A DNA stretch of 64,000 bases from Candidatus Undinarchaeota archaeon (GTDB taxonomy: Archaea > SpSt-1190 > JASMDC01), in contig CAZFHY010000002.1 of assembly GCA_964519305.1 (NCBI GenBank), forward strand, positions 127,652 through 191,651, in the 5' to 3' direction. The notes beneath the pieces are model-generated. The model was not told the origin of the DNA and ran no database searches. It worked only from the letters and a program-made list of their open reading frames with translations. Positions 284-41,481 of this stretch are shown here, piece by piece (position 1 is the stretch's first letter; each line of letters starts with the position of its first letter). The position numbers and the translations under genes are program-made.

Positions 284-295
284 TAGCTGTTAGGC

Positions 296-574: not shown

Positions 575-596
575 ATGTATCATATAGCGTTCTAGA

Positions 597-604
597 TATA
601 AATA
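597..604. promoter_or_regulatory. Bidirectional TATA box (TATAAATA) between divergent genes
   Basis: Lies ~22-23 nt from ATG 626 (+) and ATG 574 (-). Confidence 0.6.
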
Positions 605-625
605 CTTGGATGCATAATCGTGAGC

Positions 626-937: not shown

Positions 938-966
938 GCAAGCCTTATATACCATTAGACACGTTT

Positions 967-1647
967 ATGTATAAGGGGATTATCACGGGCGAGGTGCTCA
1001 CGCGCGTTGAGCGCATGCGCCTGCAGCTGCGGGCGGTGGGGTTACTCCGATACTTGAAGGAGAGCTATACCTACAGTTTTCTGGCCGATGTCACCGGACT
1101 GGACATTACCGTGCTCAACCGGTACGTCAAGGGCCGCGTGGTACCGAGCGAGGAGAAGGCATGGGCGCTCATACGCGTGCTTGGAGAACGGTTCCCTCTC
1201 GCAGAGGCCATTCGACGTCAAGTGGTACCGGAATCCGGTGATCCCGTTGACCTGTCCCTCCTTGGCGAGGATCCTGCACTGCTCGTACTTGTCGCGGACG
1301 ATGTTGCGGGACGGTTCCAGACCCATGAGGTGGACATCGTCGTGACGTGTGACAGCGCCGCGCTAGCGATCCAGATCGCTGCCCGGCTCAATGCCCGGTC
1401 GGCAATCGCAGTACCCAGCAAGAAGAGTAAGACGTTGACCCTCAGGCGTCGGCTCGTCAGACCGGACGACGCCGTCCTCATCGTTGACAATGTCACCGAT
1501 GGCGGAGCGGGTCTTCATGCACTGAAGGATGCGGTCCAGCATGCCAGGGGGCAGGTCCTGGGCGCCGTGGTGCCCGTGGCGACGACACCCTTCAAACGAA
1601 CGAAAGGAACGGACTCAATGCCCGTAAGAGTGATGGTTGAGGTGTGA
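967..1647 (+). CDS. HTH + PRTase-fold protein (PurR-like archaeal regulator)
   Basis: N-terminal HTH (YTYSFLADVTGLDITVLNRYVKG) and a degenerate PRPP-binding loop (VLIVDNVTDGG). Confidence 0.75.
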   Translation: MYKGIITGEVLTRVERMRLQLRAVGLLRYLKESYTYSFLADVTGLDITVLNRYVKGRVVPSEEKAWALIRVLGERFPLAEAIRRQVVPESGDPVDLSLLGEDPALLVLVADDVAGRFQTHEVDIVVTCDSAALAIQIAARLNARSAIAVPSKKSKTLTLRRRLVRPDDAVLIVDNVTDGGAGLHALKDAVQHARGQVLGAVVPVATTPFKRTKGTDSMPVRVMVEV

Positions 1648-1651
1648 TGAC

Positions 1652-2986
1652 ATGAAAGAGATCTATATTGGCCGCAGCGAAAAGGACGTGAAGAAGTGGG
1701 GTGATGTGGGCACAGCCTTGCTTGGAAAGCACTACGTTACCACAGGGGGCGAGGTCAACCTTTCGAACAAGGTCCATCTCGACCTGGTGAAACCCCACGT
1801 CATGTTCATCTGTGGGAAGCGAGGTACAGGTAAGTCCTACACTATGGGCACCATCGCTGAGGGTATCCAGCTCCTACCTCGAAAGGTGAAGGACAATCTC
1901 GCCTGCGTCATCGTGGACATCATGGGCATCTACTGGACCATGCGATTCCCCAACGAACGTGAGGCCGACATCGTGCGGATGTGGGACCTCGATCCCACGG
2001 GCATCGACGTCAACGTCATGGTGCCACTCGGGTGGGTGGAAAAGTTCAAGGAGATGAACATACCATTCGATGCACCCTTCTCCTTCATCCCCGGGGAACT
2101 CACTGCCAACGACTGGTGCAACACGTTCGGGCTCGAGCTATTCGGAAAGTACGGTGTAATCATAGAGCGTATCGTAAAGAAGCTCAAGAACGAGTTCGTC
2201 ACCGACTTCGGTATCGATGAGATCATCGACACGATCCGGAACGACAAGAAATCGGATGTGGCCATCAAGGAGGCGCTGGAGAACCGGTTCAGTGCTGCCG
2301 ATGACTGGGGTATATTCTCTAAGGACGGCACTGCCATCGCTGATATCGCCGCTCGCGGTAAGGTGAACGTGCTGGACACATCGACGCTGGAAGCGGCCAT
2401 CGGTGGTTTCTCCACAAAGGCACTTGTCATCGGGCTCGTGGCCCTCAAGATCCTGGAGGCCCGCATGCTCACCAGGAAGGTGGAGGAGCATGCTGGAGTG
2501 GAGTCATCGCAATCGATGTTCGGTGGAGAGGACTCGGCAGCATTGGCCAAGAAGATGATCCCGATGACATGGCTGATCATTGATGAGGCGCACCAGGCCC
2601 TGCCCCACCCCAGCGAGGGTGTGACCCCGGCATCCGTGCCTCTCATCCGGATCCTGCGAGAGGGGCGTCAGCCCGGGGTTACCCTGGTGGCCGCTACACA
2701 GCAGCCCGGTAAGATCCATACTGACGTCCACTCACAGACCGACCTGCTGTTATCCCATCGCGTTACAGCTCAGCCGGACGTCGTCTCCCTCAACTCGATC
2801 ATGGGCTCGTACATGTCGAAGTCCCTTGAGGGTTACATCCACGCTCTGCCAAAGGAGGTGGGCTCGGCGCTCATGCTCGATGACGCCAACGAGAAGGTGT
2901 ACGCCATCCGTGCCCGGCCACGGCTCAGCTGGCATGCGGGTGAGGGTGCATGCGCTCTCCAGTTGGCCAAGGACGAGGTGCTTTAG
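1652..2986 (+). CDS. HerA/FtsK-family (DUF87-type) P-loop ATPase
   Basis: H.FICGKRGTGKS (Walker A), IVDIMG, LIIDEAH (Walker B), REGRQPG and ATQQP motifs. SD-like GAGGTG precedes ATG 1652. Confidence 0.9.
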   Translation: MKEIYIGRSEKDVKKWGDVGTALLGKHYVTTGGEVNLSNKVHLDLVKPHVMFICGKRGTGKSYTMGTIAEGIQLLPRKVKDNLACVIVDIMGIYWTMRFPNEREADIVRMWDLDPTGIDVNVMVPLGWVEKFKEMNIPFDAPFSFIPGELTANDWCNTFGLELFGKYGVIIERIVKKLKNEFVTDFGIDEIIDTIRNDKKSDVAIKEALENRFSAADDWGIFSKDGTAIADIAARGKVNVLDTSTLEAAIGGFSTKALVIGLVALKILEARMLTRKVEEHAGVESSQSMFGGEDSAALAKKMIPMTWLIIDEAHQALPHPSEGVTPASVPLIRILREGRQPGVTLVAATQQPGKIHTDVHSQTDLLLSHRVTAQPDVVSLNSIMGSYMSKSLEGYIHALPKEVGSALMLDDANEKVYAIRARPRLSWHAGEGACALQLAKDEVL

Positions 2987-3104
2987 GCAGAGGCTCAGGA
3001 ACTTCGGGTGCCGGCCTTTGCATTGCATGAAATAGTGTTATAAATCGTTCCTACGTTCTGTTCTATCAGGAGCGGTTTGGTGACAGTTCTAGGTGGAAAA
3101 CTGA

Positions 3105-5588
3105 ATGGCGGGAGACAAACTCGACTCACTTGTGAAGGCTCTTGTGACCCAGCTCGGTGTGCTCGTAGTGCTGGTGCTCATTGCAGTGGTGGTACATGCG
3201 GGGCTCGGGGGTGACGCGGCGTCCTTCGGCAGACGTGGCTGGGGTAGCTTCAAGTTCCCTGCACGATATCAGCCAGTCATCGATCAGAAGGCCGTGGCCA
3301 AGGTGCCGTCCGATATCGATCCGATGAAAATGGACAAGGCACGCGTTGATGTACTTAAACGGGCCGAGTCCATCCTGAAACAGGACTCTGACAACGATGA
3401 TGTCCCTGATTTTATGGACCCTTGCCCCTCTAAGAAGGGCGATGGGGAGAACGGTTGTCCTCCGTGCAAGATCGATACTGATGGGAAGGCATTCTTTACC
3501 TGGGGCCGCGTAGGCCGCTTCACCAAGAATCCCTTGGGCGGGATGCCCAAGGGAATGAAGATGGGCAAGGACGGTATTCCTGTGAGCGGAGGCCCCACCG
3601 TACCTACCTACGAGGTCGATTTCCTCGTCGAGGACCTCTGTCTCGGTAATACCGTGCGCGATTACTACTGTGATGTCGATCCTTCAGATTGCGTGGACGA
3701 TGTAATGATATTGGGTGCTGCCAGCTACATATCGGACATGGAGGCGACTATGCTCTCATCGTCAGCATGTGTCGTTGAGCCAGCCGATACAGTTGACGGT
3801 GGAATGGTCGCGTACGAGGACGTCCCCTGTGTGTGCGGATGCTCGGGCGGCAAGTGCCTCTACGAGACCGACTCTGACAAGGACGGGACACCTGATTGTA
3901 ACGATAATGATGATGACAACGATGGTGTCAAGGACGCCGTGGACAACTGCAAGCTCATACACAATCCCACACAACAGGATACGGATAATGACGGGCAGGG
4001 CGATTCATGCGACTACGATGATGATGGTGACGGATGCATGGACACGGTGGACAAATGGCCCACTACATCGTCAACGGATTTCGATGGTGACGGGTTCGCA
4101 AATGACTGCGATATGTGCCCCCAGGACAAGGATAACGATGGTGACGGGGACGGGACCTGTGCCAACGAGGACAATTGTCCTACGGTGCCCAACGACCAGA
4201 GCGATATCGATGGTGACGGTATCGGGGATAACTGCGACTGCAAGGATGCGAAATGGAGCCCATACGAGGCCGGTGTCGATTGTGGCGGTGTTTGCCAGTT
4301 CAAGTGCCTTGAGCAGGACTGCAAGCTCGATGACGACTGGTGCGGTGATGACCTCGAACCTCTCCGCCTGAGGGGAAAGCCCGAGGACGGTTTCATCGAT
4401 GTGGTGTTCGTCCCCGACTACAGGTATGGATCACTAAACCAGTTCTACCTGGACTCGGAGGAAGCTGTGCGCGATGGTTTCTTGAAGATGAACGACATGA
4501 CCGACATCCCATTCCCGGCCAACTCCTTCAACAAGTTCAATTTCTACTATTACAAGGCCGGCCCTCTTGACGGGAAGATGCACGACTACTTGGCCAACTC
4601 CTCAGCGAGCTGTGCTGGAGAGCCGCCCGCGACCCTTGCGGGACTTGGTGGTGACGTAGCAGCGTTCCGTGATACGACCATCATCCTGTGCCCTGCTGGT
4701 ACGAAAGGGTGCTGGGGCTGCTCGTCCGGAGGACCCGGAATCAACCACGCGCTCAACGTTGAGGAGGATCTCTTCAACCTCCTTCTCCACGAGGCCGGTC
4801 ACGGGATATTCAGCCTGCAGGACGAGTACTGCGGGGACAAGACGTGGTACGACGCTGCATTCTCTCCGAATAACATCTACCTCTCCCAGGCCGCCTGTAC
4901 GAACGATGCCAATGCCAACGGATGGGTGAACGGCATCTGCACATTGATCTGTGCGGGGCACCACGCCGATCACACGATTGCCAGGAGCTCGACGGGTGTG
5001 GCCCTGTGGCGCTACGACCTCGACGTTCCTGATAACGATATCATGATCGCCTGTGGTCCGGGGTGCGGTGCGAACTACAAATATCACGAGGCCGATGCCC
5101 GCAGGGTCAACTGGGTGTTCGCCAACTGGCCGGAATCCGACACTCCGGCCATCCTCGTGCGCCTCCACATCAACGGTGACAGGATTACCGAACTGGAGCA
5201 GCAGTTGATGGGCTCGCACCCTGACCTGGGGATTGGGCCTGAGCACTTCAGGGTAGAGGTGCTAGCATCATCGGGCAAGACCGTCCTTGCGTACCCGCTC
5301 GTCGATCCGCGCATCCACTTGGGTGGAAGCGATGATAAGAATCCCGGCGAGGTCTACGAGCAGGCCGACTTCGCAATTGTAGCGCCCATAGTTGACGTGC
5401 TAGAGTCCATGCGTATAGTCGATCCTGCGACCGGTAAGGTGCTGATCAAGGTGGACCTGACCTACTCGTTCGGTGAGTTCTGTACGGGTCATACTGAGTA
5501 CCCACCATGCCAAGGGAAGCCTCTGTCCGGGGTGAGCGTACCGGGCGTTTCCGTCCCGATTACGCCACCCGGGACGACGGGACCCTAG
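3105..5588 (+). CDS. Membrane-anchored/secreted protein with thrombospondin type-3 Ca-binding repeats and an M64-like zinc metallopeptidase domain
   Basis: N-terminal TM helix; DxDxDG..D.CD repeats at ~3865-4240; IDVVFVPD; HEAGHGIFSLQDEY (HExxH at 4788-4802). Confidence 0.8.
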   Translation: MAGDKLDSLVKALVTQLGVLVVLVLIAVVVHAGLGGDAASFGRRGWGSFKFPARYQPVIDQKAVAKVPSDIDPMKMDKARVDVLKRAESILKQDSDNDDVPDFMDPCPSKKGDGENGCPPCKIDTDGKAFFTWGRVGRFTKNPLGGMPKGMKMGKDGIPVSGGPTVPTYEVDFLVEDLCLGNTVRDYYCDVDPSDCVDDVMILGAASYISDMEATMLSSSACVVEPADTVDGGMVAYEDVPCVCGCSGGKCLYETDSDKDGTPDCNDNDDDNDGVKDAVDNCKLIHNPTQQDTDNDGQGDSCDYDDDGDGCMDTVDKWPTTSSTDFDGDGFANDCDMCPQDKDNDGDGDGTCANEDNCPTVPNDQSDIDGDGIGDNCDCKDAKWSPYEAGVDCGGVCQFKCLEQDCKLDDDWCGDDLEPLRLRGKPEDGFIDVVFVPDYRYGSLNQFYLDSEEAVRDGFLKMNDMTDIPFPANSFNKFNFYYYKAGPLDGKMHDYLANSSASCAGEPPATLAGLGGDVAAFRDTTIILCPAGTKGCWGCSSGGPGINHALNVEEDLFNLLLHEAGHGIFSLQDEYCGDKTWYDAAFSPNNIYLSQAACTNDANANGWVNGICTLICAGHHADHTIARSSTGVALWRYDLDVPDNDIMIACGPGCGANYKYHEADARRVNWVFANWPESDTPAILVRLHINGDRITELEQQLMGSHPDLGIGPEHFRVEVLASSGKTVLAYPLVDPRIHLGGSDDKNPGEVYEQADFAIVAPIVDVLESMRIVDPATGKVLIKVDLTYSFGEFCTGHTEYPPCQGKPLSGVSVPGVSVPITPPGTTGP

Positions 5589-14923: not shown

Positions 14924-17900
14924 TCAGGCATACCAGAGATGGAATCGTAGCCAGGAGTACCCTACCTTTCTACCATTGGTCGTGACAACATATGCCGCCG
15001 TCCCCGTTGAGATGTGGGGGGGGACTGTCTTCTCAGGGATCGCCTCGCCCCCATGAAGCGGGATCAATCGATCGTACTCCACCTGGAAGGGATTACCTTG
15101 GAGGGAAGCTAAGCGGGGGCCCATCTCAGCAGGATCTACACTGAAGTCCATGAGGGTGCGGATGGTCGTGGCGTTGAAGGGGGTGAGCTGTGCACCCTTG
15201 ATGTCGAGGGTGATGCTGGGTTTGAGCGATGCGTCCGGCATTACTGACGCCCGGCTGACCATGTTCTTGTCCGAAAGCGCCACGGTGAATCCGCAGGCGC
15301 CCCATTTCCCGCAGGTCGCGTTCCAATACGTGATCCAGTCCTCGTTAGCGTCGAACTCGACGATCTGACCCCCTTCGATCATCCGCTCGAACACCTTGTC
15401 CATGCTGTCGGGGAAGTAGGTGACGTTGGTCCAGTCCCCGGTGAAAGCGAAGGTGATATTCCCCACGTCATGGCCCGAAGGAGCTTCGATGAGCTCGGAC
15501 GGGATGATCGTCTTGCTCATCCGCCATAGAGTCGAGGAGGGATAGAACGTATAGAGGGTGATGACCGCGCCCAGTTCGTGCCGAGCGGTCGTCTGCACGA
15601 CATTTCGGACGGGTCCTTCGACCATGACCGTGGCCGATTTACTGGTGGCAGGGATGGCTGTTTCCTCAAGTCCGGGGACCTCTAATGCGAATGATGGTCG
15701 ACCCCCTTCCATCAGGTCGGTCCCGGTGAGCGCTTGTTCCGGGATGAAGGAATTGAGCATGCACACCGCGCCGAGCCCCGTGGATGCCTGGACACCGCAG
15801 CTCACGCCCGGGCTGTAAGTGAAAGACCAGAACCCGGCATCGCTCGAGACGTTGGTCACTGAGCGCACCTCGGTCTCGTCGAGGATACCGTTGTTATTGT
15901 CATCGCGTCGGTTGGTGCACGTGCGATCGGGGCATATATCGGCGAAGCAGTCCGTGCACACGAGCTTCCTGCCCAGCGCAAGGTCTGACTCACCGGTCAC
16001 CGGTGCCTCGTTGGTACCCACTCGATAGAATGCGTAGAAGCGCTTGTCCTCTCCGGGCTGGATGCTCTCCATCCAGGAGATGTCTGCCCGAGGTGCCTTG
16101 TTCACGGAGTTCCTGACAAAGAACACGTCCCCGCGCACGCAGTAGAGCTTTTCCTCAAGGCACAGGGGCGCTTGAGGAGGTTCGGGCGGCTCCTTGTCGG
16201 TACCCATGGCATAGTAGAGGAATAGATCGCGGTGGACCTCACCAGGGTACAGGTTCGCGGGGCCCGGTGCCTCGATGAAAGGGAGATGGAAGTTGATACG
16301 TGCATAGGACGAAGGATAGGGGGCGATGAAAGGCCGGCTCATGGGCGACCAGCTGCGTGCCAGTTCCAGAGACTCGCCCGTCGGGAGCACGACCATGCGG
16401 TCTGCTGCGAGCTCGAGGTCGGTCTTGTCCTCGTACTTGTTCATACATCGTGGGAACACTGCCGTAGAATCGTGGGTCTCAAGGATGGAGAACTGGAGCC
16501 GGATGTTCTTGGGGTAGTTACGCCTGATGACCCCTGTCCGCTCATCGAACACCTTCTTTGGGACGGTGATGTTGATCGTGAAGATGTCCATGTCATCTTT
16601 GGTTGCAGGATAGATACGTGGTACGTCGAGGTCGACTGTCGTCGTGCAGAGGTAGAAGTGTTTGGAGCCAGCTTCCACCTTTAACGGCTCAGAGAGCGAG
16701 GGGAGATCGGTGTAATCGGGTTCCGTGGACTCGGTGTTCATTCCGAGCAGTTCCTCTTCATCGACCTCGCGGACCACCGTGACGCAATCGTCGATGCCGC
16801 CAGCATCGGTTATGCAGCTCCCAGGTACGATGCCCGTCACATCACCGGCGAGTTCCACGGTGTGGTTGGCCTTGTACGCCACCACGCGTACCTGCATGTT
16901 CCATGAGGGGATTCCTGAGTGGTTGACCTCCCGCACACGACGTCGTTGGAGTGTAAGACCATAGTAGATGACGTCGTCCTCGTACACACGGCCATCACGC
17001 CAGTCGACCACCTCCATGGGCACCTCCTCATAGTCCCGGTCACCGATAACCTCTACAGGTCCGTAGGTGCTCACTAGGTTGGGATGGCTGGGGATGATGT
17101 CCTTTCGGGGGCATGTGTAGCCCTCTTCAAGCGGACCGAACTCGGGGTAGGACCACTTGAGCCGGGGGTGTACCCGACAGTCACTGATGGAGCAGCGGCC
17201 ATTAGTGCATACGAAGTCGTCCTGGACATCGGTGTAGCCCGCCTTGCAGTTGCGGTACACAACCTTTACAGGATTCATATCTGGGCGACACCGGTCCACG
17301 GTTTCCTCTACATCGAACGTGTTGAAGTACAGGAAGAAGGTGCGCTTGTCACCGTAGGATACCGGGCCTGGGAATGTCCAGTTCATGAACATGGTGCAAT
17401 CGCAAGATGACTTGTAGAGACGAGGGCAGTCGAATGGACAGGAGTATGAGTCCTCGCCATCCTCACAGTCGTTGTTACCACATGTGTCAAGGCAGTCCGG
17501 ATCGCAATTGGCGTTGCTCTCCCCCACACCGCATAGCCCGTCACCGCACGTCCCCGGGCAGTCAAGATGGCAGGATACCGAGTTCTCGGTTGAGCTGCAT
17601 ACACCATCACCGCAGCAGTGTGACTCCGACGTGTAGTTCATGGGGGTCCCATAGGTATCGGCGATGAGGGTGCTGTTCATGTCCAGGCCAAGACGGCAGG
17701 GGACCCCCTGGGCGTCCATGATGTCAGCTAGCTTCACGGTAATAGACGCATTGGCCTCATTGGCCGGACCGACGGCCTTGGTGGACACGCGGAGACGGTA
17801 GTCCCATCTATCGTCGTACCAGTCGTCCATGTACAGGCGTACGGAACCGGGATCAGGATAGTCGAGGAGGTTGTCGCCATTGACATCGGCGGGCTCCAGC

Positions 17901-18601
17901 TCGACGAGGTCAGCGGGACCGGACACGGGTAGGCAGTTGACCATGTACTCCCGGTCCTCCTCTGTGATGTTGTAGAGCCCGCGAGGATCATGGTACAGGT
18001 CGCACATCCGTAATGGAAGGGTGAAATTGGGCCATGCCGAGGTCAGCTTGTGGCCGAAGTCGATGCGGTACCGGTACCACGGCCAGGCCACCTGGAGGGG
18101 CAGGATGATGTCACCGTTCCCGCTCCTCAGGTTGACCGAGCCGGGATCCACTGCCTTGGGGAGGTCTAGGGTCACTGTGACGGGCCAGTCCGTCCAAGCG
18201 TACCGTTCGGTCGGTTCCTTCAGCGTAAATGGCTGCATAAAGGATATCGAGTAGGAGAATCCAGCATGCTCTGGCAGGATGTTCTCAAGAGTCTTGTCCA
18301 AGAGGTTGAAATCCGCTGCGAACACCGCTTCTCCAAGGAAGTTCTTCGAATCCAGGCTCGAGAGGATGCCCATGATCTGATCGGACAACTCACGGGTCGC
18401 CTCCTCCTCCTGTATGACGCGGATGAACACCGGTGTGCGGAGGATCGACTGGGAGTAGAACATCAACAGGAAGATGGACAGGACCGCCTCGACAGCGTGA
18501 ATGAATCCTCTCTCGTCCTCGGCCAGTCCACGTTCAGGTCGTCCGCGCCCCCTACTTGTCAACGTCCTTCCCACGCGTTTCACCTTTACATGTACGACCA
18601 T
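14924..18601 (-). CDS. Giant type-IV minor-pilin-like surface protein B (~1220 aa)
   Basis: Class III-like signal (ERG/FIHAVEAVLSIFLLMFY); C-terminal YSWLRFHLWY strand; DUF2341-like motifs; paralogue of 18586-22218. Start may be GTG 18574. Confidence 0.75.
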   Translation of the reverse strand: MVVHVKVKRVGRTLTSRGRGRPERGLAEDERGFIHAVEAVLSIFLLMFYSQSILRTPVFIRVIQEEEATRELSDQIMGILSSLDSKNFLGEAVFAADFNLLDKTLENILPEHAGFSYSISFMQPFTLKEPTERYAWTDWPVTVTLDLPKAVDPGSVNLRSGNGDIILPLQVAWPWYRYRIDFGHKLTSAWPNFTLPLRMCDLYHDPRGLYNITEEDREYMVNCLPVSGPADLVELEPADVNGDNLLDYPDPGSVRLYMDDWYDDRWDYRLRVSTKAVGPANEANASITVKLADIMDAQGVPCRLGLDMNSTLIADTYGTPMNYTSESHCCGDGVCSSTENSVSCHLDCPGTCGDGLCGVGESNANCDPDCLDTCGNNDCEDGEDSYSCPFDCPRLYKSSCDCTMFMNWTFPGPVSYGDKRTFFLYFNTFDVEETVDRCRPDMNPVKVVYRNCKAGYTDVQDDFVCTNGRCSISDCRVHPRLKWSYPEFGPLEEGYTCPRKDIIPSHPNLVSTYGPVEVIGDRDYEEVPMEVVDWRDGRVYEDDVIYYGLTLQRRRVREVNHSGIPSWNMQVRVVAYKANHTVELAGDVTGIVPGSCITDAGGIDDCVTVVREVDEEELLGMNTESTEPDYTDLPSLSEPLKVEAGSKHFYLCTTTVDLDVPRIYPATKDDMDIFTINITVPKKVFDERTGVIRRNYPKNIRLQFSILETHDSTAVFPRCMNKYEDKTDLELAADRMVVLPTGESLELARSWSPMSRPFIAPYPSSYARINFHLPFIEAPGPANLYPGEVHRDLFLYYAMGTDKEPPEPPQAPLCLEEKLYCVRGDVFFVRNSVNKAPRADISWMESIQPGEDKRFYAFYRVGTNEAPVTGESDLALGRKLVCTDCFADICPDRTCTNRRDDNNNGILDETEVRSVTNVSSDAGFWSFTYSPGVSCGVQASTGLGAVCMLNSFIPEQALTGTDLMEGGRPSFALEVPGLEETAIPATSKSATVMVEGPVRNVVQTTARHELGAVITLYTFYPSSTLWRMSKTIIPSELIEAPSGHDVGNITFAFTGDWTNVTYFPDSMDKVFERMIEGGQIVEFDANEDWITYWNATCGKWGACGFTVALSDKNMVSRASVMPDASLKPSITLDIKGAQLTPFNATTIRTLMDFSVDPAEMGPRLASLQGNPFQVEYDRLIPLHGGEAIPEKTVPPHISTGTAAYVVTTNGRKVGYSWLRFHLWYA
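17426..17617 (-). repeat. Three tandem Cys-rich CGDGxC...E....C..DC coding repeats
   Basis: CGDGVCSSTENSVSCHLDC / CGDGLCGVGESNANCDPDC / CGNNDCEDGEDSYSCPFDC; absent from paralogue A. Confidence 0.85.
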
Positions 18602-21600
18602 ACCGACAGTTTAACCCACGCGAATCCGACCCTTCGGCTGTTAGATGTCACTGCATAGGTAGCCGTGGCCGTCGTGGTCGAGGGATTGGCCTCGCGGGAC
18701 GGGAAAGGCGTACCCCCGTCCAGTGTCACCGGCCGCTCCATCTCCACTATGAACGGTGCAGCGCGTCGGCGGAAGAAGTCGTCGCTCTCCCTGAAGTCCT
18801 CCTTGAACACGCGAACGCTCCCAAGGAACGGGTACGCTTCGAACGCTTTAGGAGAATCGGATGTAGGTGCGATCGTGATGTTCGTGCCACCGCTGCCCTC
18901 CACGCGGAGGGAGTCCACGTACAGCGAGCGTGTCCCCGTCGCTATCGAATCCAGGTCCTCGATGGTAAGGAACACGTGCTTGAAGGGCTTCTCACCCCAC
19001 AGGTCCTCCAGATCGAAGCTCATCGTCGTCCAGTCAGGGATGTCCGTGTCACCCCATCGGGCGACCGTAAATCTACCAGTGCCATCGGGAAGCATGCCCA
19101 ACTGTAGACTGGAGCGACCACCATGGGCGGTGTAGGCACGCTTGGCCCTGATGAATAGCTTCGATCCGACGGTCGAGAACTGGTGCGGCATATCGAGTCT
19201 CAGGAGCACGTCCTCACCAGTGTTCTCCGTGGCATCAGCGGTGAGGCTCATGACTCCGTCGTTAGCAGCAAGATTGTTCGTAGTACCGGCAGCGGCGATA
19301 GTGACTCCGGAGGTGTCCGCGAACTCGTCGTGCCAGCGGTCCTGGGAGAAGGTGGCCTTCTTGGCGTTCCCGGAGAGGACCGCGTAGGTGACGGTGCATA
19401 CTCCGATGTTCCCGCACGGGAAGCCCCAGTCAGCGAACCATTCGTTATGGGTCGAGAAGTCCACCTCGTCTACGTCGAAAACGGGAGCGCCGTTCGCTTT
19501 CAAGGCCGTGAAGTTATAGATCGGGATGGAGATGGAGCCCGACATGGAGGGGAGGTCGCTATCCTTGTGCGGGATGAAGTACTTCGAGTAGAGGATATAG
19601 GGCGTATCATGGTATAGCTTGATGATATCTCGTGAGTTCATCGATGAGCTGTTCGTCGTCATGCGGAGCGAAGTGAACACAGGCCCGGTCTCATCGATGA
19701 CCGCGGTCCGGTCCCCGGAGTTGGAGAATACGTGGCGTGTGATGTTCATTTTCTCGTGGGCGACCCACAAGATGTCACAATCCTCGGAGGGTGTTTCGGT
19801 GCTACAGGGACCCAGGTGGATGTCGATAGGGGTGTTGTTCAGGGCGGCGACATTTGTGACGAAGTCCTCGTCGATGATGTTGTCACCATCCCCGTCGGTG
19901 TAGTCCTTGCAGTCCTCATATGTTACGCAACGAAGGGAAAGGCAATCGTAGCACTGCTTGTCCAAGATGACCTCAAGATCCGTATCATAACCCTGATCGG
20001 ATTCATCAGTGCCCACCGAGAATGAGAGATAGTACTCCTTGGCCTGTTGTGGTCGGAAGTCGTCCAGCCATGTGACCTGTACGCGAGGAGCATGCTCAGT
20101 GGCGGTTGTTTCGAGCGTGTACCAAGATGGATCTGCCACAGTGCCTGTGGAGACAGCGTCCTTGGGCAATGTAACCGAGTTCATGCCGTAGTATAAGTAG
20201 AACCGCCGTTGGAGCCGGTAGTTACCGGCAGAATTGATGAAGGGTATCTTTGGGAGGATGCTGACATAGGATGAGGGGTAGGGAGCGACAGCAATGCCCG
20301 TTTTCACCGAGTCGATGGCCTCTGTGGTGACACCGGCCGAGGTGGTGGATGATGACGAATCCCCCCGGACGATGCCCAATGTTGTCATCTGATCGAGTGT
20401 GAGCCCTGACTCCAACGAGATGAGGGATGCCGCATCATCATTGAAGAGCGGGCTATCCCAGGTCGAGCTCGCAGAGTTGTCCGAAGCGCACCGCGGTCCG
20501 CCTTCATCATCCCGACTCTGGGGTTTGTAGATCGTGATGAACGCATTTGGTATAGCATTGCGCCAAACACGATCAGCGGAATCGACGGCCTCGTCGCGGA
20601 TGGTCACGTTCAGTTCGAAGAGGTCGTAGATATCATTGACCTCGTGGACCTCATCGCCCACCATGGTGGATGTACAGAGGTAGAAGCTCCCCTCGGCGGT
20701 CTCGTAGATATCCTTGTTGAAGTAGTAGGTGTCGTCCAACTTGCTCTGATCGGGGCGGTCACCTCCACCGATGGGCTCCAAGGTGATGCAATTGTAGCCG
20801 AGGCAAGTGCCCGGGGCACCGGAGACGAACCCACGGAACTCGACCGACCGGTTCACACGCTCCGCGCGGATATGCCATCTGAACCGCCAAGCCCGCTCAA
20901 GGCGCACGGGCTGGAACCTGATTATCGAGATACCGGTACGTGCCCTGGACTCCACGTATGTTTCGGCGTCACGCCACGCGGCAAGCGTGAACGGGATCTC
21001 CACATAATCGGAGTCACGTGTCAATTGGATCTGTGAATTAGTGGTGTCCACCTTTCCGTTGACCGTAATTGCCCCGACGCTCTTACGCGGCGTGAGGTCC
21101 CCGTCCCCATTGTTGGGTGGATTGGTCGTCCAGTCCTCGATGATGCATTTGCCTGAGCCTGAATCGGCCTTCTGGACGTCAGCCGTGAAGCTCGGGCAGT
21201 CCGCGGCAGGGAGCTCGCCGTCGAGCGTGTTGAAATAGAGCCAGTGCGTGAGTATGGTCTCACGGTCCACGGCCGTGTCAAGTTTCCAGTCCACAGTGAT
21301 AATGCACGTATCGCATGTGCAGCCGCCAGGCAAGGACACGGAGTGATCAACGGGATCGCCCAATCGGTCCGTGACTATGAACGAGTTATGGTCGATGCCC
21401 TTATTACAGCTCATTCCCGTATGGTCGATGAGCTCATGGAGCTTGATGGTGATGCGGGCGTTATCGCTCACCTTGCTCGCGTCCTTCCCACGGGAGCGGA
21501 GCTTTATGCGGAATGACCAGCGCGGATCGAACCAATCCTCCATATAGAGCGCTAACGAGTTACGGTCCGGGTAGTCCAGGAATCCGTCGTCGTTGATGTC

Positions 21601-22218
21601 GGCGGGAGGTAGCTCCACCATGGGATTGCGACAGTTGAGGCCCTTTGCGATGTCATCGTAGTAGTCGGCCTGGTCAGCGGTGCACTGGGATAAGGGAACG
21701 CTCACGTCCCGGCGCCAAAGATGATGCCAGGTGAGTGTAAAAGGGATACGCATCCAGGGTCGGCTGGTCTGGAGGGGTGCTAGGACCTTACCATTCTCGT
21801 CCCTGAGCACGAAAGACCGTGTATCGGTGGCCAATGGAACGTCCACTGATACCTCGACCGGATCACGCCTACGTGGCAGGCCTGATGTTTCCGTGACGGT
21901 CATGGGCACCATGTAGGTGACGGACGATGCGAAGCTCTCGCGTTCAGGGAACACTCCCCTGAGAGTCGTGTCGAGGCTTGCATAGTCGGCGCAGAACACC
22001 ATGTCGCCCAGCAGACCACGCCTGTCCAGACCTGCGAGCACACCGATGATCTGTTCTCTCAGCTCGTCGAGTTGCGCTCGTTTCTTGTCCTCGTGAACTC
22101 GTAGTGGCGTGTCCAGCATCCGCGATGTATAGAAGAGAAGGAGCATGATCGCCAGTACGGCCTCCACCGAGTGCACGAATCCACGCTCGTCGTGCATCAG
22201 GGAGCGTCTACGTCTCAT
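18586..22218 (-). CDS. Giant type-IV minor-pilin-like surface protein A (1210 aa)
   Basis: Signal ERG/FVHSVEAVLAIMLLLFY; C-terminal FAWVKLSVWSY; SD GAGGTGA upstream; collinear with paralogue B. Confidence 0.75.
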   Translation of the reverse strand: MRRRRSLMHDERGFVHSVEAVLAIMLLLFYTSRMLDTPLRVHEDKKRAQLDELREQIIGVLAGLDRRGLLGDMVFCADYASLDTTLRGVFPERESFASSVTYMVPMTVTETSGLPRRRDPVEVSVDVPLATDTRSFVLRDENGKVLAPLQTSRPWMRIPFTLTWHHLWRRDVSVPLSQCTADQADYYDDIAKGLNCRNPMVELPPADINDDGFLDYPDRNSLALYMEDWFDPRWSFRIKLRSRGKDASKVSDNARITIKLHELIDHTGMSCNKGIDHNSFIVTDRLGDPVDHSVSLPGGCTCDTCIITVDWKLDTAVDRETILTHWLYFNTLDGELPAADCPSFTADVQKADSGSGKCIIEDWTTNPPNNGDGDLTPRKSVGAITVNGKVDTTNSQIQLTRDSDYVEIPFTLAAWRDAETYVESRARTGISIIRFQPVRLERAWRFRWHIRAERVNRSVEFRGFVSGAPGTCLGYNCITLEPIGGGDRPDQSKLDDTYYFNKDIYETAEGSFYLCTSTMVGDEVHEVNDIYDLFELNVTIRDEAVDSADRVWRNAIPNAFITIYKPQSRDDEGGPRCASDNSASSTWDSPLFNDDAASLISLESGLTLDQMTTLGIVRGDSSSSTTSAGVTTEAIDSVKTGIAVAPYPSSYVSILPKIPFINSAGNYRLQRRFYLYYGMNSVTLPKDAVSTGTVADPSWYTLETTATEHAPRVQVTWLDDFRPQQAKEYYLSFSVGTDESDQGYDTDLEVILDKQCYDCLSLRCVTYEDCKDYTDGDGDNIIDEDFVTNVAALNNTPIDIHLGPCSTETPSEDCDILWVAHEKMNITRHVFSNSGDRTAVIDETGPVFTSLRMTTNSSSMNSRDIIKLYHDTPYILYSKYFIPHKDSDLPSMSGSISIPIYNFTALKANGAPVFDVDEVDFSTHNEWFADWGFPCGNIGVCTVTYAVLSGNAKKATFSQDRWHDEFADTSGVTIAAAGTTNNLAANDGVMSLTADATENTGEDVLLRLDMPHQFSTVGSKLFIRAKRAYTAHGGRSSLQLGMLPDGTGRFTVARWGDTDIPDWTTMSFDLEDLWGEKPFKHVFLTIEDLDSIATGTRSLYVDSLRVEGSGGTNITIAPTSDSPKAFEAYPFLGSVRVFKEDFRESDDFFRRRAAPFIVEMERPVTLDGGTPFPSREANPSTTTATATYAVTSNSRRVGFAWVKLSVWSYM

Positions 22219-22951
22219 CAGCTCTCACCTCTCCGAACTCGAGCGACACATAGTCGTCGATCTCACCGCTACCTATGGCACAACCGGAGTTGCGGATGGC
22301 GTGGAGCACACCTGACACGATATTCCGTTCCTGATCGATCCCGTCGGAGCGGAAGGCGCGGAACAGCCCTGCCTCATAAGCGACCAGTGCCACCTCGGCC
22401 GACCGGATGATCTGGACGTTCTTTGTATAATCCAAGAACTGCTGAAGGGAGTGCTCGTTGACGTAAACCTTCGCCTTTGTCCGCCGTTCGATGATGCGCT
22501 CCAGTTCCAGCGGGTCCTCGATAAGGAACCTCGTCGTCTTCTCGTCGATGAGGAGTACGTTGGCATTCATGTGACGCGTCATCGCCACGGCCTCAGCTTC
22601 GCCGAGATGGAATATCTTGGCATAGCGCCCGCTCCTTCCTTTACGGGGTCTACCGATTGCGAAGATCGAGTTCCCCCAGGAGAGCAGCTGCTCAGCGTCC
22701 ACTGCCACGTTAGTCTTCAGCTCGGGGTCCTCCGGTATGACTATGTCACCCTGCTCCAAGGCCCGCACCACGCGGATGGCCTCGAACCTGTATCTCGTGG
22801 ACTTGAGCGGCTTGTCGATTAGCTCACGACGGACCGACGGTGGGATGATGAAATCCCCTCTCATCCGCTCACGCAGTGAAGGTAGGAGCCACAGCAGGCA
22901 ATTTGTGGCGAGAGAAATGATGCTCGATGCGTCGCATACGATGTCCGTCAT
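22208..22951 (-). CDS. PIN-domain protein
   Basis: IVCDASSII, IIPPSV..EL, HLGEAEAVA and LLIDE motifs. ATG 22951 overlaps the upstream stop (ATGA) and follows GGAGG. Confidence 0.85.
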   Translation of the reverse strand: MTDIVCDASSIISLATNCLLWLLPSLRERMRGDFIIPPSVRRELIDKPLKSTRYRFEAIRVVRALEQGDIVIPEDPELKTNVAVDAEQLLSWGNSIFAIGRPRKGRSGRYAKIFHLGEAEAVAMTRHMNANVLLIDEKTTRFLIEDPLELERIIERRTKAKVYVNEHSLQQFLDYTKNVQIIRSAEVALVAYEAGLFRAFRSDGIDQERNIVSGVLHAIRNSGCAIGSGEIDDYVSLEFGEVRADET

Positions 22952-23520
22952 CGTTCCTCCACCCTGAACACCTTTCGGGCCAGTTCGAGTCTGGACGTAA
23001 CGGAACGAGTTACCTTCTCCTCGTCCACGATCTTGGTCTTGCCCGCATAGTCCATGACCTCCCACATGCTCGCGCCGGTGAGCTTGGCACTCATGCCGAT
23101 GGAGAAGCCAATAGCATAGAGCGTGCTAGCCTTCTTGATCTTGGCCTTCTCGATCACCCAGTTGACGTGGTGGCCCACTTCAGCGTCCAGTTCTACCATA
23201 GCGTTGAACACGGTCCTGAATGACTCGCGCATACCCTTGATATCGCCGCTCTGCAGTCGCTCGGATGCACGGGCTAGGTTGTCCATTACCCGACCAAGGA
23301 AGGATGGCCAGCGACGTCCTTCACGGAAATACCGCTTCTGGAGGATCTTTGAGAGACTGTAGCTGATGATTGTAAGGCTGATCAGGTCCTGGTCATGGAT
23401 GCGTGATGCCTCGCGGACCAGCCTGCTCGAGAGATCGCGCATCAACTGGTCATCGTGTTTCGCGACACCGTCGATGAGCTTGCTTAGGTCTTTCTGGAGA
23501 CCTTCGTATCTCTTCCCGAT
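22948..23520 (-). CDS. Conserved helical protein with a C-terminal HTH, partner of the PIN gene; start uncertain (ATC 23520 or TTG 23445)
   Basis: C-terminal KASTLYAIGFSIGMSAKLTGASMWEVMDY is HTH-like. The frame stays open upstream of 23445. TATA at 23542-23549. Confidence 0.7.
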   Translation of the reverse strand: MGKRYEGLQKDLSKLIDGVAKHDDQLMRDLSSRLVREASRIHDQDLISLTIISYSLSKILQKRYFREGRRWPSFLGRVMDNLARASERLQSGDIKGMRESFRTVFNAMVELDAEVGHHVNWVIEKAKIKKASTLYAIGFSIGMSAKLTGASMWEVMDYAGKTKIVDEEKVTRSVTSRLELARKVFRVEER

Positions 23521-24296: not shown

Positions 24297-25298
24297 TCAC
24301 ACCCTTCCTTTACACTCGCCCTCCATTATGCAGGCAACGACACTGCAACTGGACTTGAGTAGGCATACTGGTGCTGCTTTTATAAGCCCGAGCTTAGGGA
24401 TGCGTAACACAGCCCTCCCCTCGAGCATGTCGGGGGTCACCGCCCATCTGTCAGGGCCCGCGTTATGGTCCCCACGGGTGGCTAGGGCACGCACCTTCGT
24501 ACATGGGACCTCACCCTTGTTGGCGCAAGCGACGCCAACGGCCCGGTGCACGATGGGCATCGGAACACGGCTGTGATAGTACACGATTACGTCCCCCACG
24601 CGGATGCCCTCCGCTTTGGTCCCCACGACGAGCAGCACGTCACCACCAGTGAATCCGTTGGAGATGGGGAAATCGTTCTCCTTCACCCATGCGGCATATT
24701 CCTCGTTAGTATTATCATGCTTCATGCTGTTCGATACGACCGCAACGATCGGTGTGCTCGTGGCGAGCGTAGCGTGGAGCACGAAAAGGATGGCCTTGGC
24801 GAGCACGATGGCATACACAAGGCACATGCTCGTTTCGCTGATATGCTCCTCGGGATCGATGAACTCCGTCCAAACGAACACGACGAGGGTCAAAAGACCC
24901 GTGGCGAACAGAGAGTTGAGTCCAGGGATCTCAGTGAAGATGAAGAGTAGGAGTATGAAGGTGAGAAGGTAGTGGCCGACGACATCTTCCTTGCGGATGA
25001 CTATGCACACTCCAACACCGAGCACGAGCGAGATAGCCAGTACCTGCAGCATTGGTGGGCTTGGGGTAATGAACGAGTTCGCCATCTGGGTGAATACATA
25101 GACGAGGAGAAGGAGGATAAGCAAGAGCTCGGCCGCGTCCCTCCGGTCCGCCGGGACGAATCCCGAGTCAATGGTGGACCTATCTCTTTTCTTTTCCGGT
25201 GAACTTTTAGGGACTTCTTGTGTTTTCTTCTTCTTCGGAGCCGACGAAGAACGATCATCTCGTTTCTTTTTTTTCGCGCCAGCTCGCTTCCGCGCCAT
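24297..25298 (-). CDS. sec11: Signal peptidase I (Sec11 type) with an extended Lys-rich and multi-TM N-terminus
   Basis: VVSNSM (Ser), GDVIVY, PIVHR (His) and TRGDHN..D motifs. Confidence 0.88.
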   Translation of the reverse strand: MARKRAGAKKKKRDDRSSSAPKKKKTQEVPKSSPEKKRDRSTIDSGFVPADRRDAAELLLILLLLVYVFTQMANSFITPSPPMLQVLAISLVLGVGVCIVIRKEDVVGHYLLTFILLLFIFTEIPGLNSLFATGLLTLVVFVWTEFIDPEEHISETSMCLVYAIVLAKAILFVLHATLATSTPIVAVVSNSMKHDNTNEEYAAWVKENDFPISNGFTGGDVLLVVGTKAEGIRVGDVIVYYHSRVPMPIVHRAVGVACANKGEVPCTKVRALATRGDHNAGPDRWAVTPDMLEGRAVLRIPKLGLIKAAPVCLLKSSCSVVACIMEGECKGRV

Positions 25299-25331: not shown

Positions 25332-26606
25332 TCACCAAACGACCAGCGTCATTCGCGCAATGGCCTTCTCCCCGGATGGATATTTAATCGTGATGTAGCG
25401 TTCGACGCTGGCCGATGCCGTCCCCTTGGGCGGTGGGATACCGCGTTCGATTATGAGGAACGATCCCTCTACGCTCACCTGGAACGGTGCTACGTACGGT
25501 GTGATCGAGTTGCCTCCCGCGTCCCGAGAGATTATCGTGATGTTGCCGTGATAGGTTCCCGGTTCGTTCATGAAGAACGTGGTAGAGAAGACAGCAGTAT
25601 CGCCTTTACGGAGGAAAGCGAAGTGGTCTGGATTGAGCTCGATATCGGCCTGGTACCTATTGACCGCCCTGGTCTCGGGTTCCCCCTCCGGCCGTATTAC
25701 CGTGTGCACCCGGGGTTTGAGACGGATACCTCGCATATCTGATGGAGCGGTGAGCTCTAGATTGAGGCTGCAAGTGTTTCCTCGTATCGGATAGATCGAG
25801 CAGTTGATAAGAGGTGGGAACAGGATGGCCGTGCGGGCAGGTTCATCGCCGATGACGTTCATGTCGATGGCCCGATAGCCCATCGCCTCGGTCGAGTTGA
25901 GCAGCGCCAGTATCGTGTAGGTTCCTGGTGCATCGTAATCCTCGAAGGCGTACTCCACCTCGCAGAGCCTGCGAGTTTCATGCTTCGCTTCCAGCTGGAC
26001 CACGGCCCGACCTTCCTTGAGAACGAAGGGTATGCAATTGAGATCGACGTCGCTCCGGTTGACGTAGAAGATTGCAGTGATGTTGGACCGCGTCTTGTTG
26101 ATGTTCGCACAAATGGGCATGTAGGAGTAGCAATGGAGGTAACCGTCTTGGGGAGAACCTGCGATAGCGTTGATCGAGAGAGTTGGTACCCTCTCGATGC
26201 GTAAGTGGAACGTCTTGTTGGGCATGTTCATGGCCCGGACCATCTTTGTATAGTTACGGGCAGACTTGATGGCCTCGTCGTACAGGCCGGAGAACTCGTG
26301 CAACTTCTCTATGCTCAGGACAGGTTCATCGGCGTCGGAGAACCCGATTCGGAGGTAATTATTCTTCCCCCAATGATCACAGTTCTTATTGGCGACGCAG
26401 TCGCACTCCTCGTCACAGCCCGCATCGTTCGTGAGCTGCCACACAAGTTGCTGAGCAGCGATACGGAGTGTCTCCTCGTAGGAGAAGGCCAGATAGCGGT
26501 TCACCGATTGGGTGTACTGCATGATGGTGATGCTGAATATCATGGCGAAGAGAAGGAGGCTGACCATGAATTCGAGGTTGAGCTGGCCGCGGGACCGCAC
26601 CGTCAC
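25332..26606 (-). CDS. Type-IV minor-pilin-like protein with a class III signal peptide
   Basis: RSRG/QLNLEFMVSLLLFAMIF with Glu at +5; C-terminal SVERYI...ARMTLVVW. GTG 26606 lies ~24 nt from the TATA at 26630-26635. Confidence 0.8.
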   Translation of the reverse strand: MTVRSRGQLNLEFMVSLLLFAMIFSITIMQYTQSVNRYLAFSYEETLRIAAQQLVWQLTNDAGCDEECDCVANKNCDHWGKNNYLRIGFSDADEPVLSIEKLHEFSGLYDEAIKSARNYTKMVRAMNMPNKTFHLRIERVPTLSINAIAGSPQDGYLHCYSYMPICANINKTRSNITAIFYVNRSDVDLNCIPFVLKEGRAVVQLEAKHETRRLCEVEYAFEDYDAPGTYTILALLNSTEAMGYRAIDMNVIGDEPARTAILFPPLINCSIYPIRGNTCSLNLELTAPSDMRGIRLKPRVHTVIRPEGEPETRAVNRYQADIELNPDHFAFLRKGDTAVFSTTFFMNEPGTYHGNITIISRDAGGNSITPYVAPFQVSVEGSFLIIERGIPPPKGTASASVERYITIKYPSGEKAIARMTLVVW

Positions 26607-26704
26607 TCCGAAAGATGCCCGAGCCACGCTTATATCCTTTTCTGCGGAACGGCCGGCGGCTATCCCAAAATCCTTTTAACTGATTACGGTCAAAACCAAA
26701 ACGG

Positions 26705-31098: not shown

Positions 31099-32364
31099 AT
31101 GATAGGGTTCGTGCTCGCTGCCATCGCCTTAGGTGGGTGCCTTCTCGCCACTTGGTCCGATATTAAGACCAAGGAGATCCCGAACGAGCTCAACCTGCTC
31201 CTCATCCTTGCAGGCATCTACATCCGCACCTACCACGTCATCAACACCGGGGATCATGAGTTCATAACGACACCACTCGTCGTTGCGCTCTATTATTTCA
31301 TAGGCTCGGCGGCGCTCTATTACAGCTGTCAGTGGGGAGGCGGGGATGTCAAGCTCCTAATAGCTATCGGGTGCCTGCTGGGCACTTTCCCGCAGGAGTT
31401 CTTCTATCTGGAGGACCATTTAGGGTTCGAGATAATGCCCGGTGCGGCAGCAGCAGGGATCCCCAAGGTCGCGGGCAATCCCCGATGTCTGGCACCTTGC
31501 ATTGATCCGCCTTGGCCGTTCTGGGCCACTATGGTATTCAACATAATGTTCGTTGGCGCGGTATACGGACTCATGGCCGCCCTGTACCTGGGATTGCGTA
31601 ATCCCAAGGCCATCACTGAGCTGAAGCGGACCGTGCGACGTGATGAGAAGGAGCTCGTAGTTGTGCTCCTCGGATGCGCTGTGTTCATCCTGTTGGTGGG
31701 CTACGGTCTCACGGACACGCTAGACCTGTCATACTTGATCCGCTCCTGGCCGCTGTACATTCAGTTCGCCTTCATGTGGTTCCTCATCAAGTTCGCCCAT
31801 ATTATCCAGGACGTATCCATGAAACGGGAGGTGCCTGTGGACGAGCTTCAGGAGGAGGACTGGATCGATGAGGACGTCATCGTGGACGAGCCCGTGTTCG
31901 CCTGGGAGGAGGTCCCGGGAAAGATAGCGGAGGCAGCGCTCATAGACCATCTTCGGATGCTGGAAGGAGTTGAGCTCGAGGGTAAAGCAACCGTGGAGAA
32001 GAAGGACGATATAATCACCATTAAGGGCAAGGTGCGGAAGCTAACGCTCACGTTGGAGGACAAGGACGAGAAGGTGGTACTCCGTGAGAAGGGCTCCGTG
32101 CTCGCCGAGTACGTGGTCCGCAAGGACGAGGACGATCGGTCGGTCGTTACACTTCCCGACCGGGAGGTCGCATCGACCTGGGACCCCGGTGTGTCCCAAG
32201 AGCAGATCGACGAGATCGTGCGCCTGGCCAAGGAAGGCCGGTTCAAGGACACTATCCGCATCAAGGAGGGAGTGCCGTTCGCTCCTGTATTCCCTCTGGC
32301 AGTGCTCGTGAGTTTGCTCTTCGGAGACGTTATCTTTTTGATTATACTGCGGTATTCTATCTGA
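31099..32364 (+). CDS. Prepilin/prearchaellin peptidase (A24, PibD/FlaK/EppA-like)
   Basis: Catalytic SDIKTKEIPN and GGGDVKLL (GxGD) motifs; C-terminal VPFAPVF; polytopic. Confidence 0.9.
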   Translation: MIGFVLAAIALGGCLLATWSDIKTKEIPNELNLLLILAGIYIRTYHVINTGDHEFITTPLVVALYYFIGSAALYYSCQWGGGDVKLLIAIGCLLGTFPQEFFYLEDHLGFEIMPGAAAAGIPKVAGNPRCLAPCIDPPWPFWATMVFNIMFVGAVYGLMAALYLGLRNPKAITELKRTVRRDEKELVVVLLGCAVFILLVGYGLTDTLDLSYLIRSWPLYIQFAFMWFLIKFAHIIQDVSMKREVPVDELQEEDWIDEDVIVDEPVFAWEEVPGKIAEAALIDHLRMLEGVELEGKATVEKKDDIITIKGKVRKLTLTLEDKDEKVVLREKGSVLAEYVVRKDEDDRSVVTLPDREVASTWDPGVSQEQIDEIVRLAKEGRFKDTIRIKEGVPFAPVFPLAVLVSLLFGDVIFLIILRYSI

Positions 32365-41458: not shown

Positions 41459-41481
41459 ACTATATCGAAGGACGGACAAGG

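Follow-up and report, generated by a model that had tools for sequence, protein, structure and literature searches.

The window analyzed here is a 64-kb stretch of the chromosome of an archaeon of the Undinarchaeales-type DPANN class (contig C2, positions 127652 to 191651, of source genome G000, which amounts to 3.6 Mb in 42 contigs and is 99.8% complete with 4.3% contamination), and it carries genes for TFS, arcTGT, ArgRS, AspRS, RFC, and an A24 peptidase. Two tandem genes on its minus strand, A (18586-22218; 1210 aa) and B (14924-18601; 1225 aa), encode giant pilin-like surface proteins, and the 5' start of B overlaps the 3' end of A by 16 nt. The best explanation of this pair is that both belong, as duplicated and enlarged copies, to a family of pilin-anchored surface proteins specific to this lineage, and that their DUF2341-like modules are apparently inserted one into another. 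The initial annotation of the locus was exact in the coordinates of the two open reading frames (ORFs), and the motifs that it assigned to B do lie in the downstream gene.

A is recognized by its ORF and translation, by paralogy to B, and by an orthologue in the sister species of the same genus (G001). The two proteins match over their full length (BLASTP, 25% identity, E value of 8e-81), as had been claimed, with a separate C-terminal match at 39% identity (E 1e-11). The sister species has orthologues of both, 90 to 91% identical (91% for the B orthologue, P0003), and the ratio of nonsynonymous to synonymous substitutions (dN/dS) is 0.11 for A and 0.11 for B. Full-length paralogy, sister-species orthologues, and this low dN/dS mean that A and B are real genes under purifying selection. 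The “variable tips” of the initial annotation find no support in this degree of conservation: no 60-residue stretch exceeds a dN/dS of 0.43, and the one that reaches this value is the cytoplasmic leader of B. A has 21 Cys residues and 7 N-glycosylation sequons, and B has 38 and 14.

When 1.84 billion representatives were searched exhaustively with HMMER, 311 matches reached an E of ≤1e-3. Among the 150 matches listed, the best stretch lay in the Cys-repeat region of B for 146, and the other four were A, two fragments, and P0126, a 768-aa relative of the N-terminal part (N part). With B, a word-index search (4308 candidates) yielded just three proteins, namely its paralogue, its orthologue, and one with Cys repeats; the same search with P0126 found only P0126 itself, and one with a profile of the N part, directed at longer proteins, found three. 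In a search for related loci, the N-part alignment gave no conserved stretch, and A8 gave the sister species only. Among 17 genomes of the class, each of two N-part profiles detected relatives in 13 and their union in 14, the three genomes with no match being 83 to 87% complete. Among 184 other archaeal genomes, weak matches occurred in only 10 and were confined to profile positions 1 to 124.

The family exists in two forms. The fused form is a single protein of 768 to 826 aa (G005, G007, G009, and P0126). In the split form, a gene for an n protein of 213 to 230 aa is followed by one for a c protein of 549 to 888 aa with its own Sec-like signal, and the gene ends overlap; this form occurs in G002, G004, G010, G012, and G013 (family f2) and in G003 and G011. 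Residues 6 to 226 of the fused G005 protein (G005L) match the n protein of G011 (E 1e-31) and residues 257 to 799 match its c protein (E 2e-9), a genuine case of gene fission or fusion inside a single taxonomic family. The c proteins of family f2 contain a bona fide Pfam DUF2341 domain (E 3e-23 to 3e-4).

Both termini of A and B carry features shared with other family members. The N-terminal part of B (residues 1 to 112; 18266-18601, minus strand), equivalent to 21940-22218 in A, consists of a basic leader, a hydrophobic helix, and a helical N domain. The class III-like signal proposed in the initial annotation is present in both: a basic leader ending in DERG is followed by F and a hydrophobic segment (from residue 13 in A and residue 32 in B), which is the only hydrophobic segment in either protein, and the pattern of a short basic leader ending in a small residue before ~20 hydrophobic residues was found in A and B alike. 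The leader and hydrophobic motif are common to nine family sequences, and V5 and E6 past the putative cut are invariant in all nine. The n proteins of f2 (L067 to L071) begin with M at the position just past the putative cleavage site of the other forms (M-I/L-R/K-S-T-E-A-V) and thus lack a cleavable leader. A candidate processing enzyme of A and B is an A24 prepilin-type peptidase encoded 9 kb from A at 31099-32364 on the plus strand (Pfam Peptidase_A24, E 2e-12, with archaeal C-terminal domains), the best of four A24 genes in the genome.

At the other end, a two-strand motif (LRFHLWYA/VKLSVWSYM) occupies residues 1166 to 1225 of B (14927-15106) and the equivalent part of A (18589-18768), both on the minus strand, as supported by the BLASTP alignment of A with B and by conservation in the family. 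This motif, too, had been noted before, and the final 60 residues of the proteins can be aligned for 14 of the 15 family members of fused or c type, including the DUF2341 proteins of f2; the remaining protein is a truncated ORF. The C-terminal strands are therefore kept in fused and split forms alike. An 800-aa DUF2341 protein from another lineage (L100, on G056:C76; ORF 2507-4909, minus strand; genome of ~3.2 Mb) has an N-terminal hydrophobic helix and a C terminus, ..LVLPIHWRTGIA, that resembles the last strand of the A/B family, and it may be a distant member.

The middle of each protein had been described as three openings of a DUF2341-like module followed by three closings. Two profiles built from proteins other than A and B were used here: one of 23 DUF2341 modules from archaea, which reaches further upstream than the Pfam model, and a second (M2) of 11 copies of “module 2” from relatives, in 11 of which this module is uninterrupted. 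Residues 136 to 228 of P0126 match a hidden Markov model (HMM) of the DUF2341 module (24.6 bits, positions 6 to 95 of 99), and module 2 is therefore a distant DUF2341-type module. When half-module profiles were scanned by hhalign, unbiased, over the A/B alignment, the M2 opening profile matched B 113-170 (opening 1; score 23.0, E 9e-3, nulls at most 16.0) and B 174-259 (opening 2; score 41.2, E 5.5e-6, probability 86%), and the DUF2341 opening profile matched B 260-327 (opening 3; score 29.5, E 8e-4). The DUF2341 closing profile matched B 764-802 (closing 2; score 24.4, E 1.3e-3; E 0.045 with the M2 closing profile), and the M2 closing profile matched B 834-863 (closing 1; score 24.2, E 2e-3). 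The best null scores were 10.8 to 16.1 for the reversed alignment and 7.5 to 17.2 for 10 column shuffles. Closing 3 (B 400-431) is seen only in the alignment of the full module, B 260-431, which covers all 98 positions of the 23-module profile with the Cys repeats as a 65-residue gap (E 2e-3, probability 13%). An independent method thus recovers, above the nulls, the series of three openings and then three closings that had been listed, and the same order recurs in A.

On the minus strand of the window, the module 1 opening lies at 18074-18265 (B 113-176) and in A at 21760-21939 (A 94-153; E 4.9e-3 in A); from A and B alone, it matches M2 columns 1 to 60 with an E of 3.2e-4. The module 2 opening lies at 17819-18073 (B 177-261) and 21538-21759 (A 154-227). 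The DUF2341-like module 3 of B (residues 260 to 431) lies at 17309-17824, with its hairpin broken by the Cys repeats (B 323-399; 17405-17635), and that of A (residues 228 to 334) lies at 21217-21537, is uninterrupted, and aligns with DUF2341 core positions 1 to 98 (hhalign, E 4e-3). The putative closing 2 lies at 16196-16312 (B 764-802) and 20173-20274 (A 649-682), and the module 1 closing lies at 16004-16114 (B 830-866) and 19999-20109 (A 704-740).

The label “DUF2341-like” needs to be read narrowly: distant likeness is evident through the custom profiles, but neither A nor B reaches the gathering score of Pfam PF10102 (23.4 bits), and a six-frame search of the genome placed PF10102 matches on contigs C3 and C15 only. 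On contig C15, an 801-aa ORF (L022, G000:C15:6718-9837; ORF 7-2412, plus strand) has a DUF2341 module that matches Pfam positions 1 to 41 only and runs into a Cys-rich block where the last strand would be expected, and a closing-like YIYLYYEN lies ~250 residues upstream of the module. L022 may thus offer a further case, within the source genome, of a module that is interrupted or permuted.

Nested insertion, in which module 1 holds module 2 and module 2 holds module 3, is apparently the best reading of this order. Opening 1 covers only M2 columns 1 to 60, and the closing 1 profile covers only columns 64 to 95 (E 3.5e-5, probability 72%). Joined, their columns match the whole M2 profile from column 2 to column 95 of 95 (E 1e-6, probability 91%, score 38.4; E 3.3e-6 with the A and B sequences alone), and all 30 column-shuffled controls scored lower (17.3 to 21.8). 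The split pairs of G011 and G003 bear on the same boundary. Closing 1 is found at residues 28 to 62 of the G011 c protein, right behind its Sec-like signal (26.5 bits, E 2e-9), and, more weakly, at residues 29 to 57 of the G003 c protein (E 0.015). This natural chain break separates module 2 from closing 1, so a cut precisely where the nested model predicts a module boundary is tolerated in the family.

Module 2 is seen whole in relatives and as its N half only in A and B: the HMM of this half matches A 201-226 (20.1 bits, 3e-8) and B 233-259 (10.1 bits, 4e-5), and module 3 begins directly behind it. Module 3 in turn is contiguous in A and broken in B by 67 extra residues at the hairpin between strands 4 and 5. 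The comparative evidence thus favors the insertion proposed in the initial annotation, and the pairing of closing 2 with opening 2 is tentative. B 764-802 as closing 2 fits the count of openings and closings, and an HMM search for the module 2 closing gave nothing significant (best, 0.2 to 3.3 bits at B 793-801 and −2.6 bits at A 407-420). No closing was found at B 521-600, and the head of the middle region resembles, if anything, a further opening (E 0.055). Collinearity of A and B, from module 3 onward, with the DUF2341-LamG proteins of f2 was not significant (E 0.082). The opening and closing halves would be expected to pair physically.

The two paralogues differ in what their modules carry. 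B has 67 additional residues (21 + 46) with three CG(D/N)(G/N)xC repeats (B 325-398), which are absent from A, as had been noted. The CG(D/N)(G/N)xC..DC repeat is a widespread module, to which nearly all matches of the exhaustive HMMER search are due, and it occurs in three other large ORFs of the source genome. The extra domain claimed for A corresponds to 135 residues that are indeed peculiar to A (A 948-1151; 18766-19377, minus strand), but as alignment gaps they are spread over five blocks. They fall within region Y (B 867-1165; 15107-16003, minus strand), a fast-evolving region in which profiles of the subfamilies do not match each other significantly (E 0.039 to 0.4). The initial annotation placed a “supersandwich-like” segment here, for which A and B offer no sequence support; the only fold match, and a middling one, comes from the low-confidence model of the relative G005L. 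In a VIA-align comparison of this model with 48,161 chains, residues ~290 to 467 (predicted local distance difference test [pLDDT] mostly 50 to 67) aligned with YidC P1, mutarotase, GH97, and polysaccharide-lyase domains in 17 of the 50 rows (Z 6.8 to 9.0; 135 to 158 residues), where a best Z of 7 to 8 is typical of searches with no clear match. Chains of this kind are classed as supersandwiches. Residues 520 to 621 aligned with CBM35-like jelly rolls at a middling Z of up to 8.9. Equivalence of the ~290-467 segment to a part of A or B was not significant (E 0.098).

The link to type IV pili suggested in the initial annotation is supported by a conserved gene neighborhood in relatives, where the family gene lies inside a pilus operon at 10 loci. 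The order in these operons is a T2SSF/TadC-like platform gene, a Sec-signal protein ending in a V-x-V-W strand, a class III-signal protein, and then the fused gene or its n and c counterparts, followed by a 390-aa protein with a class III signal, a helical protein of 165 aa, and a PIN-like protein. The first small operon product (L067 to L076) has a Sec-type rather than a class III signal and a conserved terminal P-x-E/R-V-x-V/T-W-V strand, so that each operon may encode a second donor of strands.

Homologues of the last two operon genes lie upstream of A on the minus strand: one for a 247-aa PIN-like protein (22208-22951), directly upstream and overlapping the start of A by 11 nt, and one for a 165-aa helical protein (22948-23445). 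Neither product has a Pfam match. Their homologues stand at the end of the pilus operon in the five f2 loci examined (31 to 37% identity; blastp E 1e-39 to 3e-43, tblastn E 4e-18 to 4e-24). With the last two operon genes of the relatives joined tightly to A in this way, the linkage is conserved although the order is permuted. Contig C18 of the source genome carries a T2SSE ATPase gene and two T2SSF genes, one of which is 42% identical to the platform gene of the relatives (E 1e-69), and two platform genes are the mark of the Epd-like “system 1” (PMC13705601).

Further upstream on the minus strand, a 431-aa protein (25332-26627) begins with a class III-type signal (RGQ) and ends in an LVVW strand. 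The idea that it is a fusion of the two small operon proteins of the relatives was dropped, as BLAST showed no similarity. The adjoining gene (24297-25298) encodes a signal peptidase I of the archaeal type (TIGR02228, 57.5 bits), which is extended at its N terminus by a long multihelix segment. The window also encodes a 1535-aa surface-type protein with DUF11/BatD/CARDB-like domains (36947-41554, minus strand) and an 827-aa surface-type protein with thrombospondin type 3 repeats (3105-5588, plus strand). The source genome (3.6 Mb) and its same-genus relative (3.8 Mb) are very large for a DPANN-type class, whose 15 other genomes span 0.6 to 1.2 Mb.

We favor, at a probability of roughly 0.55, the reading that A and B are tip-located, pilin-anchored adhesins, built as a nested sandwich stack, of an Epd-like type IV pilus. 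The stack would have arisen by successive insertion of one DUF2341-like module into a loop of the previous one, with module 3 of B holding in turn a knot of Cys-rich repeats and two poorly defined regions completing the protein. The A24 peptidase would cut behind ERG, and the N-terminal helix would then enter the pilus at its tip, since the body is too bulky for the shaft. The initial annotation had assumed a position at the pilus base, whereas the bacterial literature puts bulky modular pilins at the tip (PMC8179133 and PMC13533445). The C-terminal strands could return in cis to the N-terminal domain, as in bacterial CpaL/TadG and GspK, and the nested sandwiches might then make up a stalk in which outgoing and returning stretches of the chain are paired. 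Such a stalk would hold the innermost cargo, which is specific to each paralogue, farthest out, where it could mediate adhesion to a partner cell, a particle, or DNA. Paralogy, selection, the distribution of the family, the operon setting in relatives, and the half-module matches with their order are shown by the data; we infer the physical pairing of the halves, the tip location, the processing, and the adhesive role of A and B.

A more specific scheme, which we put forward tentatively, is an archaeal counterpart of the bacterial “licensing” of pilus tips. In the split form of G011 and G003, the c protein would lock noncovalently on the n protein at both ends: its first two strands (closing 1) would complete module 1 of the n protein, and its last two strands would complete the pilin domain. 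A and B might then be a covalently closed version of this double clasp, enlarged by recursive insertion of a module into its own hairpin at three levels and by duplication into two cargo variants.

Several observations weigh against the favored pilus-tip reading. One alternative, which we consider unlikely, is that A and B are not pilus subunits but membrane-anchored or bindosome-like surface proteins, either envelope adhesins or an S-layer-like coat, whose class III-like N terminus would only anchor them in the membrane or in a short pseudopilus. No gene for a pilus ATPase or platform protein was found in the 64-kb window, the machinery lying on contig C18, and the Sulfolobales bindosome is one of the nonpilus systems in which archaea also use class III signals (PMC13705601). 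B has a long leader (32 residues), the fastest-evolving part of the protein (dN/dS 0.43), and in the B orthologue (L007 1441-5118) ERG-F is replaced by ESG-F, with S at position −2 of the putative cleavage site. Against an envelope role stand the 10 pilus operons of the relatives, the invariance of V5 and E6 across the family, and the conserved C-terminal strand, which fits the logic of bacterial tip complexes (PMC13533445).

It is improbable that what look like openings and closings amount to degenerate modules or to small beta units that stand alone, strung like beads with no discontinuous domain, although the case for nesting is exposed at several points. The half-module matches are singly weak in several cases (E 1e-3 to 1e-2, hhalign probability 4 to 24%), closing-only profiles scanned over the A/B alignment did not match closing 3, and Pfam and NCBIfam scans of A and B gave no match at an E of ≤1. 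Profile scores are additive, so the pairing of an opening with a closing cannot be read from them. In addition, B 675-803 can be aligned as a single uninterrupted module (E 1.2e-3, probability 19%). In f2, opening 1 is rudimentary in the n proteins, and the closing 1 HMM had no significant match in five c proteins. The terminal W strand is not a general C terminus of archaeal DUF2341 proteins, a possibility that we rejected because at most 1 of 15 such proteins from other lineages (L100) ends similarly; this same rarity makes the motif a feature of the A/B family.

Structure prediction did not add support for nesting. The AlphaFold2 model of B, from a five-sequence alignment, is unusable (mean pLDDT 28.4, predicted template modeling score [pTM] 0.24, no residue above 50), and that of G005L is of low confidence (pLDDT 43.8, pTM 0.34). 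Values of 50 to 68 in the latter fall mainly in residues 90 to 226 and 248 to 280, where opening 1, module 2, and closing 1 lie, as well as in parts of 300 to 420 and 550 to 700; in both models, the N-terminal regions are below 50 and the C termini below 30. Foldseek matches of the G005L model (TM score ≤0.11; root mean square deviation, 16 to 76 Å) were discarded as meaningless. A sequence search of the PDB with three profiles gave nothing meaningful, and ESM Atlas matches scoring 0.75 to 0.81 are leads only. What speaks for nesting over a row of independent units is that opening 1 and closing 1 are complementary halves of a module that is contiguous elsewhere, that module 2 is present by half in A and B and in full in 11 relatives, and that the Cys insert of B sits inside an otherwise full module alignment.

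An obligate heterodimer of A and B, for instance through strand exchange between the paralogues, would be compatible with the favored reading and is suggested by the overlapping tandem genes, the retention of both copies in the sister species, the two large DUF2341 proteins also carried by methanococcal pilus loci (PMC4858521), and the need of the split halves to associate in trans, but it is doubtful, given that a single copy suffices in the fused-gene relatives (G005, G007, G009, and P0126) and that neither paralogue lacks any of the openings or closings.

If the nested reading is true, a rigid stalk in which outgoing segments pair with returning ones, made by inserting one module type repeatedly into itself, allows an archaeal pilus to display different binding cargos. 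The fused and split relatives would then amount to an experiment of nature on how strands complement each other at the pilus tip, a mechanism so far described only in bacteria. A- and B-type proteins would also be candidate contact makers for DPANN-type archaea, which are thought to depend on cell contact. In Undinarchaeota, pili have been proposed to serve in DNA uptake and LamG proteins in adhesion (PMC7414124). The present practical value lies in a defined family with clear constructs to test.

The initial annotation knew of no description of this architecture, which is too strong. Our literature search returned no account of a nested DUF2341 or pilin architecture for the A/B family, and the supplements of PMC4858521, PMC7414124, and PMC13705601 may list this family or related archaeal clusters of orthologous genes; precedents do exist for its parts, in the layout of CpaL and GspK, in the nesting of Mfa5, RrgA, and GBS104, and in the recursive same-fold nesting of Si3. 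RrgA has two nested levels. In Mfa5, RrgA, and GBS104, a head domain lies between strands of an IgG-like stalk domain, so that the stalk, which projects the head, is made from two distant segments (PMC7835359), but these are proteins of type V or sortase pili with other folds and isopeptide bonds, whereas A and B would have three levels of one fold. A solved example of repeated modules of one fold that do not follow in simple tandem is Si3 of cyanobacterial RNA polymerase, a 150-Å rod in which SBHM-2 to SBHM-5 are built from distant regions of the chain (PMC10895346); Si3 is a cytoplasmic enzyme insertion with the SBHM fold and has no relation to pili. PilB of Streptococcus sanguinis carries, as A and B would, a functional module on a small pilin module, and modeling puts it at the pilus tip, with a role in adhesion (PMC8179133). 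It differs in having one vWA module attached by a short loop, while A and B have several modules of the same type, apparently nested, and a chain that would return to the pilin end.

The layout of CpaL/TadG and GspK resembles the one predicted for A and B: a minor-pilin-like N-terminal part, a large middle, and a beta strand at the extreme C terminus that comes back to the pilin domain (PMC13533445). In the bacterial systems, PilY1/PilC contributes its final strand in trans to the sheet of a minor pilin of PilK type, and GspK and CpaL (~600 residues) supply the strand in cis; the middle of CpaL, ~470 residues, is partly dispensable for piliation (PMC13533445). In the archaeal family, the fused form mirrors the cis arrangement and the split form the trans one. 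Archaeal pili are not a subject of PMC13533445, in which “archaea” is confined to the introduction. Unlike CpaL/TadG and GspK, with which no sequence similarity was detected, A and B are archaeal, have an apparently nested middle of ~1000 residues, and would return their strands by analogy.

The archaeal Epd-type DUF2341 proteins, such as those of Methanococcus maripaludis, share with the A/B family a large size, secretion, and a place in pilus operons with two platform genes, often with two such proteins per locus (PMC4858521, PMC10133366, and PMC13705601). Those of methanococcal Epd-type pilus loci have been predicted to be PilY1-like tip adhesins (PMC4858521), and one such gene was struck in a Methanococcus transformation screen (PMC10133366). 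A and B differ from them in falling below the Pfam threshold, in having modules apparently interrupted by each other, and in being fused to a pilin-like N part. The partner proteins of f2 combine a bona fide DUF2341 domain with the C-terminal strands of A and B.

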